37,686 bases of DNA, taken from IMG/VR virus record IMGVR_UViG_3300028585_000049, positions 1 through 37,686 of that record. One strand, written 5' to 3'. Shown here piece by piece: positions 10,564-36,117 of the stretch (position 1 is the first letter of the stretch; each line of letters begins with the position of its first letter). The notes beneath the pieces are model-generated. The model saw nothing but the letters and a program-made list of their open reading frames with translations, made no database searches and was not told the DNA's origin. A program made the translations under genes and the position numbers. Source of the stretch: a virus. Its lineage: Duplodnaviria > Caudoviricetes.

Positions 10564-11028
10564 TTACCCCAGCAGCCTGCGCAGCTGGGCTTCCTCGATT
10601 TCGAGTTCACGCTCGGTGACCGGCGCCTTCCATGGCGGCGGGCACGTCTCGTCTTCGGCACGCCGGCCTTCGGCGAGGTACTGTTTCGACAACTCGCGGA
10701 TCAGCCGCGCTTCCCACGGCGCCAGGCGCACGCTGGTGTTGTCCTGCCATGCTGCCAGTTCACGCGAACTGATCGGCGCGGCACCCATCCCGGCAGCCTC
10801 TGTCAGGCCGATCTCGATCAGCCAGTCGAAGATATGGGGCGCCGGGTTGGGCGGCATTTGCGGCGCGAGTTTGCGCCGTTTGAGATCGTCCATCCGGCTG
10901 AGGCGGGGCTGGTCCTGTTCGATCTTGGCCCGCTTCGAACCCGCTGGCGGCTTCGGCGTGGCGCTAAGCCACGCCAGCTGCCGGACGTAGAGGGTTAGGC
11001 CGCCTTCGATGCGGCGCTGAAGTTTCCC
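10564..11028 (-). CDS. Tail assembly chaperone C-terminal extension (gpGT-like), reached by -1 frameshift
   Basis: The -1 frame is open from the slippery site (LQRRIEGGLTLYVRQLAWLSATPKPP...) into the 10564..10893 ORF. Confidence 0.85.
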   Translation of the reverse strand, partial: GKLQRRIEGGLTLYVRQLAWLSATPKPPAGSKRAKIEQDQPRLSRMDDLKRRKLAPQMPPNPAPHIFDWLIEIGLTEAAGMGAAPISSRELAAWQDNTSVRLAPWEARLIRELSKQYLAEGRRAEDETCPPPWKAPVTERELEIEEAQLRRLLG

Positions 11029-11441
11029 CAGTCACCAAAGAATTTCGCCACCTGTTTGGTGATGAAGCCGAGCGACTGATCGGCATAGAGGGCGCGGAAC
11101 AGGGCATCGCCTGCCAGCGGTTCCGTGACCCCATCGGGCTGATAATCGAAATTCTCGAACCGCACGGTCAATTCGGCGAGATCCTGCGCCGTCTCGGCGA
11201 CACGCTCTTCGCGGGTGGCGGAGGTGATCTTGCCGTCATTGTCCTGCATACGCTTGAGCGTGCGCGCCGACTGGCGGGACTCGATCACGCCGGCAATGTC
11301 GCTGCCGGGACCGTGCAGGTGGATCTTGATGGGCAGCTTGCGCTCGGCGTCGGCATACAGCGGTTCGCCGTTCGGATCCTTGACGTGCAGGGCAGCGGTC
11401 GCGGCAACGGCCAGGGCGGCGATATTGAAAATCTTGGTCAT
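10995..11441 (-). CDS. Tail assembly chaperone (gpG-like)
   Basis: Lies between the major tail and tape measure genes; ends GDWGNF with a slippery heptamer. Confidence 0.88.
   Translation of the reverse strand: MTKIFNIAALAVAATAALHVKDPNGEPLYADAERKLPIKIHLHGPGSDIAGVIESRQSARTLKRMQDNDGKITSATREERVAETAQDLAELTVRFENFDYQPDGVTEPLAGDALFRALYADQSLGFITKQVAKFFGDWGNFSAASKAA
11022..11028 (-). promoter_or_regulatory. -1 programmed ribosomal frameshift slippery site G GGA AAC
   Basis: X XXY YYZ heptamer in the correct phase near the end of the chaperone gene. Confidence 0.85.
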
Positions 11442-11445
11442 GGGT

Positions 11446-11541
11446 CATCCTTCGCGGGAAGATGGTGCGCCGACCTGCCCCGCAACCCGCGATAGCGGGG
11501 CAGGTCGACGCATAGGGTAGAGCCGGCGTCGCGGGCGCCGG
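11446..11541 (-). ncRNA. Putative cis-regulatory three-hairpin RNA element with complementary loops
   Basis: mRNA hairpins with loops CCCGCGA / UCGCGGG / CCCGCGA; the third stem contains the AGGA SD of the chaperone gene. Confidence 0.6.
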
Positions 11542-11548
11542 GAGGGGG

Positions 11549-12004
11549 TTAGGCGGCCGGCGCGCGCACGACCTTCGTGCAGATCTCGACCGTCGGGGTC
11601 GCCATCATGACGGGATCGGCGCCGTCGACCGTTTCCGGCCAGCCGAACACGCGGCCCTGAAAATAGCGCTTGGCACCCGACTGGTAGGTCACGCGCACCG
11701 AATAGAGCGCGTTGGTCTCTTCGTCGGCAGCGGTACGGAACAGGGTCTGCCCCGCATCGCTTTCGTCCAGCGCGAACTGCGGCTGAAGCGAACCATAGTC
11801 GGCGCTGCCCTTCAGCTTCTGCTTGGGGCCTTTGAGCGGCTGGAACTCGGTCTTGGCGAACGTCGCGCCGATCGTGCCGATCTTCTCGCAATTGCCAGCC
11901 TCGGTGTACGTCAGGGCCGCATAGCCGGCGACGTCCTGCGTGGCGGGCGCGGCGACGCTGATCGCGATCGCCGAGCCCGCTCCGGTCTGAAGACCCATAT
12001 TCAT
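11549..12004 (-). CDS. Major tail (tube) protein
   Basis: KLKGSADYGSLQ and DESDAGQ motifs, size and synteny; AGGAG SD. Confidence 0.9.
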   Translation of the reverse strand: MNMGLQTGAGSAIAISVAAPATQDVAGYAALTYTEAGNCEKIGTIGATFAKTEFQPLKGPKQKLKGSADYGSLQPQFALDESDAGQTLFRTAADEETNALYSVRVTYQSGAKRYFQGRVFGWPETVDGADPVMMATPTVEICTKVVRAPAA

Positions 12005-12071
12005 TCTCCTGGGGAATTAGGCCGGCGCGGGCCGGCGCGTGATCCGTCCGGCGGTTGCCGGACGAAAGGGG

Positions 12072-17818: not shown

Positions 17819-19081
17819 CTATTCCACCTTGTCTTGCGGCGATGTTTCGCCGCCCGTGAGGGTATCAGCTGCCCGGTTGCTGTTGAGCGGTGCGCGCGGA
17901 TCGTCGGCCCAGTCCGCATCGATGCGCGGCTGGCCGAACCACTGCGTGCCGATCGTGTTGACGCTGAGGATGCCGGCGGTGCGTGCCAGCACGGCATTGC
18001 GCCACTGGGTCGCAGCATCACCGCGCAGCATGCTGTCGAGATTGAACTTCGCGCGGACCTTCTGAAGCCGAAGATCCGGCGGGATCATCCGCACGGTGAT
18101 TGCCTGTTCCATGCGACGGGTGAGCGGTCGAAGCGCCCAGTTCACGAAGGACCGCGTATCCTGCTCGTTGTTGCCGGCGTTGCCGCCATCGTCACCGATC
18201 ATCGACCGCGGAATGCGCCAGTAGCGCCCCATCTCAAGCGTGCGCTGGGCAAAGAGTTCGCGCAGCTGGGCGTCGACGTTGTTGCTGCCGACCGCCGTGT
18301 ATTTGACGCCCTGCTCGAACACCGGGGTTCCGCCGCGCTTCCAAGCCGCGACACCTGTCGCCAGTCTGTCGGCCGATGCATCGGTCAACTTCTGTTCCGT
18401 CGTAACGATGCCGGACGGCCGACGATCGTTGCGGAAGAACGCCCTCGAACCGACCTCCAGCGCCAGCTGGAAGTCGATCGAACCCTTGGCCTGCTTCCAC
18501 GGCACAAGCGGCCGTAGCCCCCCATCCGCCAAGCCGGTGAACCAGAACAGTTCCTGCGGCAGCAGCCGGCGCTGGCCCGTCTCGGACGCATAGTCGACGT
18601 ACATGCTGCGCTCACCCCAGTTGGCCGTGGTGCGCAACGGCGATAGCGGCCAGATCTCCAGCCCGTCGACGCCGACCGTCGGCTCCGCGAACGCCTCGCC
18701 GCGCAGCACGCACGTGAAGGCCATTGCCGCCCAGAATTCGGCGCCGGTCTGCAAGTGGTTCGGCTCGTATGCGAGCACGTTGGCGAGTGGGAAGTCGTCC
18801 CGCGTGCCGTTGTCGTCCTTGAACTCCAGGGCGAGGCTGCCGACCGCCTCCGCAATGATCGACACGCAGAAGAACACGGCCGCGACCCGCGCGGCCGTCT
18901 CGGCGGTGTTAGCCTCCATCGGCATGGCCGCGACGAGTGACGTCCACGTATCGTCGCCGAAGAAGCGGCCGTCCGTCACATTGGACGGGGCAGGGCGCCC
19001 GGTGACCGGCGCTATAGCCATGTGCCCATGGGAGGAATTGACCCCCCCGGCGCGGCTGCGGTAATCGTCTGGACTGGGCAT
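17819..19081 (-). CDS. Portal protein (HK97 family)
   Basis: VFFCVSIIAEAVGSL, EPNHLQTGAEFW, LRGEAFA and LDSMLRGD motifs. Confidence 0.95.
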   Translation of the reverse strand: MPSPDDYRSRAGGVNSSHGHMAIAPVTGRPAPSNVTDGRFFGDDTWTSLVAAMPMEANTAETAARVAAVFFCVSIIAEAVGSLALEFKDDNGTRDDFPLANVLAYEPNHLQTGAEFWAAMAFTCVLRGEAFAEPTVGVDGLEIWPLSPLRTTANWGERSMYVDYASETGQRRLLPQELFWFTGLADGGLRPLVPWKQAKGSIDFQLALEVGSRAFFRNDRRPSGIVTTEQKLTDASADRLATGVAAWKRGGTPVFEQGVKYTAVGSNNVDAQLRELFAQRTLEMGRYWRIPRSMIGDDGGNAGNNEQDTRSFVNWALRPLTRRMEQAITVRMIPPDLRLQKVRAKFNLDSMLRGDAATQWRNAVLARTAGILSVNTIGTQWFGQPRIDADWADDPRAPLNSNRAADTLTGGETSPQDKVE

Positions 19082-20817
19082 CAGAGTATCAACATGCCCC
19101 TTTCCTCATAGACGAAGCCGCCTGCGGCCTCCGGGTTTCTGGTCATCAGCATCACCGCGTTGAACATCGCGGCGAGCGGATCGATTTTCGCACTGGCCGA
19201 AGCCTTCACGATGGCGACCGCGCTCGTGCCGCGCGGCTCCATCTTCGCGTTGCCGACACACCACGACATCATGGCCGAGCCATCGTGCCGCATCGTCCGC
19301 GCTGCGAGTTTTCGTGCCGAACCTTTAACGGCGCTGGACAGCTTGAAGCCCTGCCCGATCGCCGAGAATTGCTCGTCGGTGAAATCCTTGGTCGCCAGTT
19401 CGTCCACGATCGCGGTCACGCCGACCGGATCGAGGCCGATGGCCTCTTTCTCCGGAAAGAGACCGGCGTCGCGGACCTGCACGAGGATCTCCACGACGCC
19501 GCGAATATCCTCGGTCAGTTCTTCCTCGGCATCATCGCGCTCGATGTCGATCGTGGCGTCGTCGGGCATCAGGCACTTGGTCAGGGATCCCTCGCCAACA
19601 AGCTCGTTGAGCTTGGTGGCGATGTCCTGACGGCGCTTCCACACGATCGACCACGCCCAGGCATGGCACCACACCAGCCAACGCTTCGAACCCTTCTCAC
19701 GACCGATCAGGCAAAGCCCGAGCAGATCGTCCAGGCCGCCCCCGTCGACACCGGCCACGATCACCTCGCAGCGGCGTATCAGTTCGGCGACCGACAGCGT
19801 CTTGTCGATCGCGCCATCCCAAAACTCGGCACCGGTCCAGCGATCCCGGCTAAGGCGCGTGCCGATCTCTACGTTGAGATGCTTCGCGAGGAAGATCTGC
19901 AACCCTTCGCCTGCGCCACGCTGCTCCTGCGCGAGTTCGTTCTCGATCCAATCCTCATGCACCGATCGCCCGATGTTCGGGTTGGTGACGTAGAAGTTCG
20001 AGGTTTTGAGGTATTCATCCCGATCCAGCATCGCTGGCGGGTATTCGTAGAGGACGCCCAGACTGGCAGGATCGTTGATCGTGCCGTCGCGGACACCGCG
20101 GAAATGGTCGAGCTCGTCTTTGAAGACGCCCCGTGGCTCTTAGTCGCTGTGCGTCGTCAGGTAGATGACGAAGCCTTCGCGAGCCGACGATAAACCGCCG
20201 GTTGCCTCACGCAGCATTGCCTTGGCGTTGGCGCGTTTGCCGAAGATCCAAAGCTCGTCGATCAGCACGAACGCCGCCTTGGTGCCGCTGACGACATCCT
20301 TGTCAGCGGCGATGATCTTCAGTTCGGCTTCCGTGGTCCGGTGTTTGATGAGCCGCTGGTGGTCAACGACATGCAGCAGCGCGTTCAATTCCGGATCGTG
20401 GCGAACCATGCCGGCAGCGGGGTCGAAGCTGTTGCCAGCGACTTCGATCGTCGGCGCGAGGATCAACAGTTCGGCATTGAACCGCCAGTTGCGGATCAAT
20501 GCCGTGACCATGATCCCCGCGGCGATCGTCGATTTCGAGTTCTTCTTGCTGATCAGCAGCAGAAACTTGCGGATCAGACGCCGTGCGGATTGATGGTCGT
20601 ACGCGCCGAAGATGGCCGACACGAAGTCGAACACCCACTGATCGCACGCCTCGCCGAACGTCGGCTTGCCCGGCAGGTCGACGATATGCAGCGACTTGAA
20701 CACCGCCAGGGCGGCAGCCGCCTCGTCGGGAAACAGCGGGTCGAAAGGTATCAGCGAACGCCGCTGGACGATCCGGTCTTCCCAGTCTCGGCAGGCTGTC
20801 GACCAGACCGGCGTCAA
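19081..20817 (-). pseudogene. Terminase large subunit interrupted by an in-frame TAA at 20142-20140
   Basis: ORFs 20140..20817 and 19081..20031 are in the same frame and read YLTTHSD*EPRGVFKDELDHFRGVRDG across the stop; Walker A ISKKNSKS, Walker B VLIDE, nuclease GVDGGGLDDL and KIDPLAA. Confidence 0.88.
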
Positions 20818-36040: not shown

Positions 36041-36117
36041 TGGCGCGCCCGGAGGGAGTCGAACCCCCGACCGAGGAGGTAGAAGCTCCTTGCTCTATCC
36101 AACTGAGCTACGGGCGC
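36041..36117 (-). tRNA. tRNA-Arg(UCU), prophage integration target
   Basis: Cloverleaf: GCGCCCG acceptor stem, GCTC/GAGC D-stem, AGGAG-CTTCTAC-CTCCT anticodon arm, TTCGACT T-loop, encoded CCA. Confidence 0.95.

Follow-up and report, generated by a model that had tools for sequence, protein, structure and literature searches.

The window, i.e., the whole 37,686-nt stretch of DNA analysed here (IMG/VR record IMGVR_UViG_3300028585_000049), carries the late operon of an HK97-like phage or prophage. Its relatives belong to Sphingomonas and kin. The element described below is read on the minus strand as mRNA and lies between the gene of the major tail (tube) protein and that of a tail assembly chaperone (Table 1). 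Elsewhere in the window, the terminase large subunit is represented by two ORFs (20140-20817 and 19081-20031, minus strand), both assigned to phrog_9, which may reflect a split gene, a frameshift or an assembly error. A tRNA gene near the window end (36044-36117, minus strand) possibly marks an attachment site.

The gene that follows the element behaves like a tail assembly chaperone of the lambda G type. The pattern known for lambda G/GT was found, i.e., flanking tube and tape-measure genes and a -1 slippery site leading into an overlapping ORF. The slippery heptamer GGGAAAC or GGGAAAG was present in 108 of 125 loci, any heptamer of the form X XXY YYZ in 119 of these. The predicted structure of the chaperone reached a pLDDT of 88.5. 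Its top fold matches were both weak: YqbN with a Z score of 5.0 and, ranking second, the HK97 tail assembly chaperone (Z 4.5, rmsd 6.0, 97 aligned); Foldseek gave an E value of 2.1. A search of GenBank phages with the chaperone protein yielded no match.

Table 1. Positions of genes and RNA features at the tail locus of the window
Feature	Position	Strand	Basis or remark
Major tail (tube) protein gene	11549..12004	-	PHROG 158 major tail protein, E 4e-14
Tube gene stop codon	11551-11549	-	sequence
H1 hairpin, 6 bp	11523..11541	-	sequence; stem kept in nearly all members
H1 loop (putative decoy), with the sequence of the pre-SD site and complementarity to the H2 loop	11529..11535	-	loop conservation
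H2 hairpin, 18 bp including G.U pairs, 11-nt loop, no U-tract	11466..11512	-	sequence, covariation
Antisense 7-mer in the H2 loop (putative anti-RBS)	11486..11492	-	pairing with the pre-SD site
H3 weak hairpin, 6 bp including one U.G, pyrimidine arm and SD	11446..11464	-	accessory, not universal
Pre-SD partner site, i.e., the H3 loop, 17 to 11 nt 5' of the chaperone ATG	11452..11458	-	sequence
Shine-Dalgarno sequence (AAGGA) of the chaperone gene, 6 nt 5' of the ATG	11448..11452	-	sequence
Tail assembly chaperone gene (lambda G-like), ATG at 11441	10995..11441	-	flanked by tube and tape-measure genes
-1 slippery site G GGA AAC	11022..11028	-	predicted GT fusion; frame open to 10564
H1-like GCCGG...CCGGC hairpin before the tube RBS, variable loop; control, outside the switch	12021..12036	-	comparison of loci

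An earlier note, made from the letters of this DNA, had described three hairpins between the two genes and had read them as a possible switch: a ribosome terminating at the tube stop would melt H1 and set H2 free to open H3, whose 3' arm holds the Shine-Dalgarno sequence (SD) of the chaperone gene. The structural part of this description was borne out on the minus-strand sequence. The three hairpins are at the positions given by the note, the H2 loop is complementary over 7 nt to both the H1 and the H3 loop, AAGGA lies within H3, and the last base of the pre-SD partner site is the first A of AAGGA. The spacer between tube stop and H1 measures the claimed 7 nt, the linker from H1 to H2 10 nt, and a single nucleotide separates H2 from H3. 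The pairings H1-H2 and H2-H3 draw on the same bases of H2 and therefore compete. Computed energies were -40.5 kcal/mol for H2, -10.6 for H1 and -4.0 for H3. A 131-nt region around the element had a folding z score of -2.55, with one of 200 shuffles equally good. The frequent G.U pairs in H2 point to the mRNA strand. In Rfam 15, the whole window returned only a tRNA at the gathering threshold; the best match at the element itself had an E value of 1.3, far below gathering. Thus the Rfam search that the note had suggested left the element without a family match. At the top of the 3' arm of H2 (11478-11484, minus strand) lies a near copy of the loop 7-mer, which could pair with either partner once the upper stem is open. 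Members of the L107 type have a stronger version of this copy, which appears not to covary with the partner.

Conservation and covariation of the element

The upstream regions of 143 distinct related chaperone loci were collected by protein searches of viral, genome and metagenome collections and by one H1 pattern search; in five metagenome loci the upstream DNA was too short. The element was present in 139 of the 143 loci, the four others (L300, L537, L543 and L547) were omitted from later counts. The chaperones of this family are 32-99 % identical. A covariance model matched the window once and held-out members with E values of 1e-17 to 1e-11. Among the deep members, five were matched at about 3e-4 to 6e-4 and L532 and L546 only at 0.5-0.8, while L534 and L536 were not listed among the matches. 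The model also gave a weak match at the same position in Pseudomonas phage vB_Pae_U2 (E 0.006). In a sample of 151 genomes from the same order it matched four, one match being doubtful. A match in L552 (E 1e-4) was treated as chance, since it is not at a tail locus. In the deep member L540, an insert of about 510 nt, by reading probably an HNH-type gene, separates tube stop and H1, and the element is intact. Judged from these comparisons, the element is a conserved RNA family, a new one of a known broad kind, with a putative function.

In all 139 members the H2 loop pairs over 6-12 bp with the pre-SD site, 7-12 nt that abut or overlap the SD of the chaperone gene; the pairing search across the members was motif-anchored. 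Seven core pairs in 139 members give 973 cells, of which 957 are Watson-Crick pairs, nine G.U pairs and seven mismatches, so that 966 of the 973 cells pair. The core loop sequence varies freely provided that the pairing is kept. Double-sided changes in this helix were found in L048, L064, L123, L143, L164, L534 and L536, and likewise in L551, which is outside the 139. At the terminal pair, a change from G-C to U-A occurred in eight loci. By our reading of the chaperone tree, a quick version with many weak forks, these represent about ten separate double-sided events; seven loci scored in a shifted register were excluded as covariation. L060 combines a perfect match to H1 with a terminal mismatch at the RBS site. 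The earlier note had made its proposal depend on loop complementarity that is conserved and covaries in homologs, and both were found. H2 ranges from 16 to 22 bp across the members. In a 64-sequence alignment, 14 of its 18 pairs were changed on both sides with 91.6 % of the cells paired, the lower stem being the most consistently paired part and conserved in sequence beyond pairing needs. The helix between H2 loop and pre-SD site had 97 % of its cells paired in the same alignment. None of 500 shuffles, which ignore kinship, reached these values.

Chance complementarity in GC-rich DNA would be one account of the loop match. The 7-mer is indeed common in the window, with 24 copies observed against 21.2 expected, i.e., not enriched. 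A run of at least seven Watson-Crick pairs to the H2 loop appeared in 1.3 % of the shuffles of the downstream flank and in 3.7 % of those of the upstream flank. What decides in favour of the element is its conservation combined with compensatory change. The repeated double-sided changes and the 966 paired core cells leave chance hardly credible as an explanation, and for the pairing of H2 loop and pre-SD site it is effectively refuted.

The stem of H1 is nearly universal; a C-G to U-A change was seen in three of twelve rows of a hand-picked alignment. A loop in decoy form, i.e., with the sequence of the pre-SD site, was present in 88 of 139 members and missing in 51; this share is biased by 13 loci recovered with the H1 pattern and amounts to 75 of 126 among the protein-found loci. 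On the quick tree the decoy form is scattered and requires nine gains or losses, at least seven of them forced by starred branches. It also occurs in the deepest branch, so the form is old and was repeatedly lost or swapped. Of 74 decoy loci scored, 70 had the identical decoy loop; in this set of loci the look-alike hairpin 5' of the tube gene had 37 versions of its inner sequence. In L526/L535, H1 loop, H2 loop and pre-SD site changed together, a three-way compensatory change in the hand-picked alignment, and in L486 a one-sided change between H1 loop and H2 loop kept a G.U pair. The evidence for the pairing of H1 loop and H2 loop thus amounts to a single double-sided event, confined to one lineage. 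When H1 loops with a change at position 5 were searched for by pattern, 84 matches were obtained, none of them at tube or chaperone loci; a pattern scan for position 1 gave five matches, including one tail locus whose element does not differ in sequence from that of L526. From these compensatory changes we conclude that both loop pairings are under selection. In most members examined, the GCCGG...CCGGC hairpin, an H1 stem with variable loop, stands about 10-20 nt before the tube SD. A second hairpin precedes it, and the stem may be a repeated late-mRNA signal.

Readings of the loop pairings

The interpretation that we tentatively place first, and which falls just short of being probable, takes the H2 loop as an anti-RBS brake and H1 as an optional decoy. 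Pairing of the H2 loop with the ribosome-binding region of the chaperone gene would likely repress translation of G and GT. The H1 loop, having the sequence of the target, would likely absorb H2 loops and so loosen the brake. Loading of the 30S subunit would be lowered, the 18-bp helix being brought into the 30S footprint, and the brake would thereby set the tube:chaperone ratio. We infer the lowered loading from the position of the duplex, whose end is no more than 1 nt away from the SD start in 108 of 139 members and lies further into the SD in 28. In at least 11 members, e.g., L059, L532 and L539, it covers 2-4 nt of the purine stretch containing the SD, which supports a brake and argues against the claim of the earlier note that H2 pairing frees the SD. 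In L041 (2435-2480) a hairpin of about 35 nt is inserted between H2 and the partner site and the pairing is kept, also in support of a brake. The near-invariant decoy loop, compared with the 37 variants of the look-alike loop, supports the decoy role of H1; the single double-sided event behind the H1 pairing speaks against this part. Against the brake stands that in most members the duplex goes no further than the first base of the SD, which is thus left free, as in the activating pseudoknot of ColIb-P9. Four metatranscriptome runs contributed patchy contigs, which gave neither transcript ends nor levels.

The free SD would fit an activator pseudoknot similar to that of repZ, which we consider unlikely. 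Here the H2 loop would capture the pre-SD site in cis, stretch the anti-SD arm of H3 and free the SD, while H1 would hold the H2 loop off until disturbed, e.g., by a terminating ribosome. The layout is the same as in ColIb-P9 repZ, with a loop pairing 5' of the SD and a competing antisense kiss (PMC4705826), and the duplex end within 1 nt of the SD in 108 members agrees with it. In the window, a linker of 7 nt plus 2 nt of loop slack about spans H2, only with H3 melted. H3 itself has at least 4 bp in 88 of 139 members and at most 2 bp in 40, a few loci being mis-registered in these pair counts. Its complementarity was 2.75 bp compared with 2.04 bp in shuffled partners, a value reached by none of 2000 shuffles that ignored kinship. 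Among the 88 decoy members, 69 have an H3 of at least 4 bp. The excess over shuffles and its presence in decoy members fit a role for H3 opening and count against the brake. However, H3 is weak: its energy is -4 kcal/mol in the window and -5 kcal/mol or lower in only four of 138 members. In a model that omits the pseudoknot itself, engagement of the partner eased the opening of the region from SD to start codon by a median of 0.1 kcal/mol and by 0.6 kcal/mol in the window. Members without H3 still keep the pairing of H2 loop and pre-SD site, thus opening H3 is not its sole purpose. The small modelled gain and the SD purines covered in at least 11 members argue against the activator, and the frequent lack of H3 together with the small gain against the earlier claim that H2 frees the SD by opening H3.

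The proposed trigger, a terminating ribosome that melts H1, fared no better. The mRNA channel of the ribosome holds 11 nt past the first P-site base (PMC7282821), so that 6 nt past a stop codon in the A site are covered; H1 begins at the 8th, just outside. Among 86 decoy members, H1 is 6-15 nt from the stop in 75 and 39-78 nt in 11, in which other hairpins are inserted. Together with the 51 members lacking the decoy loop, these distances speak against the trigger, and they also weigh against the gating of an activator by termination. Of the switch as a whole, the two covarying loop pairings were supported, its trigger and its polarity were not; the mechanism of the earlier note is weakly supported.

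Whether the H2 loop can reach its own partners was estimated with A-form helix parameters. Computed groove minima of 10.0 and 16.9 Å matched the usual values, and crossing 18 bp requires about 59 Å in this model. A canonical coaxial pseudoknot over an intact H2 at full stretch is reachable in 35 of 139 members. The full cis pairing becomes possible in 71 members if loop slack is allowed, and every one of the 139 can form a bent core of 5 bp. Since the bent core is within reach throughout and the slack form in 71 members, geometry does not force pairing in trans. In most members the partner is 1-12 nt from the foot of H2. The linker to the 7-mer has at most 4 nt in 12 members and 1 nt in four of the family (L055, L170, L486 and L492). 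To open the foot of H2 by 4 bp would take 9.8 kcal/mol, and by 6 bp 12.3 kcal/mol, compared to -12.6 kcal/mol for the duplex. A kiss between H2 and an intact H3 within one molecule, as the switch had implied, would be impossible by geometry (18 bp against 6 bp with a 1-nt linker). Also the linker between H1 and H2, 6-13 nt across members, is by a hand estimate too short for a straight kiss over an intact H2. Pairing in cis would therefore be strained or need fraying, pairing between molecules would be unstrained, like that of the bicoid dimer (PMC7357161). The limited canonical reach, the 1-nt linkers and the consistent pairing of the lower H2 stem were counted in favour of the brake.

Within the brake explanation, cis and trans are about equally probable. 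The cis version would be a pseudoknot under strain, with H3 melted and the foot of H2 frayed. In the trans version, a late transcript would use its H2 loop to bind the RBS of a second one; a decay fragment that covers only the tube gene and ends at H2 is an optional source of the loop, and negative feedback would rise with the concentration of late mRNA. The linkers are often too short for unstrained intramolecular pairing, so pairing between mRNAs is a live possibility. That late transcripts pair between copies, the rigid 18-bp H2 holding its loop off its own partners, we regard as a minority prospect. It would imply a protein-free, concentration-sensing feedback in which tube-length transcripts silence the RBSs of chaperone genes. 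H1 would then be a titrating decoy that shifts the set point, and mRNA dimers or chains might form at the site of tail assembly.

A protein-gated operator was rated distinctly improbable. Free chaperone or another late protein would bind the paired structure and repress its own translation, H1 and the pre-SD site being two copies of the recognised motif. The autoregulation of the P22 scaffolding protein is reportedly a precedent. The sequence conservation of the lower H2 stem beyond pairing needs and three invariant basic residues of the chaperone (R60, R64 and R80) would suit a bound protein, and a duplicated protein-binding motif could mimic the three-way change in L526/L535. In its favour, gene 32 protein of phage T4 autoregulates via an upstream pseudoknot (PMC10690425). 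The free variation of the core loop sequence with retained pairing is opposed to it; among the weak structural matches of the chaperone model no RNA-binding fold appeared.

Just as doubtful is a function in stability, processing or scaffolding, without direct control of initiation. H2 would protect the 3' end of the tube mRNA or be an RNase III site, and the loop pairings would cluster late transcripts or tune cleavage. A plain hairpin without pairing follows the tube stop in most related Pseudomonas-type loci, the length of H2 is tightly held, and a U-run follows H2 in six deep members. The partner site, held against the SD in all 139 members, is left unexplained by such a function. In these six (L539, L540, L541, L542, L545 and L546) a longer H2 precedes the U-rich run, which suggests that H2 derived from a leaky terminator.

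Further roles were rejected. An intrinsic terminator or attenuator was dismissed, as the window region has no U-tract and a U-run after H2 is found in 6 of 139 members, all deep. Readthrough or frameshifting at the tube stop does not agree with the intergenic length, which modulo 3 is 0, 1 or 2 in 30, 52 and 55 of 137 loci, nor with the variable spacing. A multi-gene antisense function was rejected because none of 68 tape-measure-like starts had 6 bp or more to the H2 loop. A 7-nt match to the H2 loop upstream of the 14882 ORF in the window ends well before the SD of that ORF. Pairing of H2 with the look-alike hairpin before the tube RBS was discarded in view of its variable loop.

Comparison with known systems

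Long-tailed phages need fixed proportions of tube protein, chaperone and frameshifted chaperone. For the ratio of G to GT a mechanism is known (PMC5009743); our literature searches brought up no report of an RNA by which initiation at the chaperone gene is adjusted to the tube. The 100-nt element with its natural variants with and without decoy and its compensatory alleles would open this question to direct tests by reporter assays. Should the element work between separate mRNAs, the feedback would be of an unusual kind and could serve as a compact stoichiometry tool for synthetic operons. Full-text literature searches gave no description of the element; the motifs of Weinberg 2017 (PMC5737381) were compared via Rfam only. 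Fremin et al. 2023 list ten candidate structured RNAs upstream of Phage_TAC genes (PMC10690425, supplementary table 3), likewise conserved RNA structures within 25 nt of tail assembly chaperone genes. None of these ten was among 21 of the 23 Sphingomonadales rows in a comparison by table rows, and one of them may still correspond to the present family; in the main text of that paper no passage on tail genes was found.

Other phages have related layouts. In Vibrio phage 137E35-1 (L173:1605-1700), the tube gene is followed by a terminator-like hairpin. Its loop can pair with an 8-9-nt motif that occurs twice further downstream, the second time at the SD of the next gene. This is another arrangement of one loop with two partners, of unrelated sequence. 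Salicola phage CGphi29 (L174:1960-2055) and the loci L298, L301 and L302 carry branched hairpins with a loop complementary to a 6-7-nt site just downstream, in the latter three after a U-rich run. These look like a separate family of pseudoknotted terminators.

Kissing loops are described for the dimerisation motif in domain III of the bicoid 3'UTR and for the phi29 pRNA (PMC7357161). As in the tail element, a rigid stem carries an apical loop that matches, over 6-7 bp, a site close to the foot of this stem, a layout that can give closed dimers or open oligomers (PMC7357161). Those RNAs serve mRNA transport or DNA packaging, whereas the partner here is a ribosome-binding region and dimerisation is a possibility suggested by geometry. 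OppZ and CarZ are autoregulatory sRNAs derived from 3'UTRs, OppZ being an operon RNA that represses a sub-operonic RBS (PMC7398697). The complementarity of an operon RNA to an internal initiation region of its own operon is shared by the tail element. OppZ and CarZ lower the expression of downstream but not of upstream genes (PMC7398697). They are cut by RNase E from the operon 3' end and depend on Hfq, whereas the antisense of the tail element is a hairpin loop about 35 nt from its target.

The translational pseudoknots of repZ in ColIb-P9 (IncI-alpha) and repA in the IncB plasmid pMU720, both with an Inc antisense RNA (PMC4705826), share two features with the element. The bases directly 5' of the SD are the partner of a hairpin loop, as found here, and for this loop they face a kissing competitor, a second loop of their own sequence. 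The plasmid systems bury SD and start codon in a stable hairpin, whereas H3 is weak and excludes the ATG. Their competitor is a separate antisense RNA, here an optional hairpin in the same mRNA carries the competing loop; a plus-strand sigma-70-like promoter at the element was not found in the window. The leader ORF of repZ and repA ends at the partner site, while the tube stop lies about 90 nt upstream of the partner in the window and its spacing to H1 ranges from 6 to 78 nt among the members. Finally, the pairing in repZ and repA activates translation, whereas a brake is proposed for the phage tail operon.
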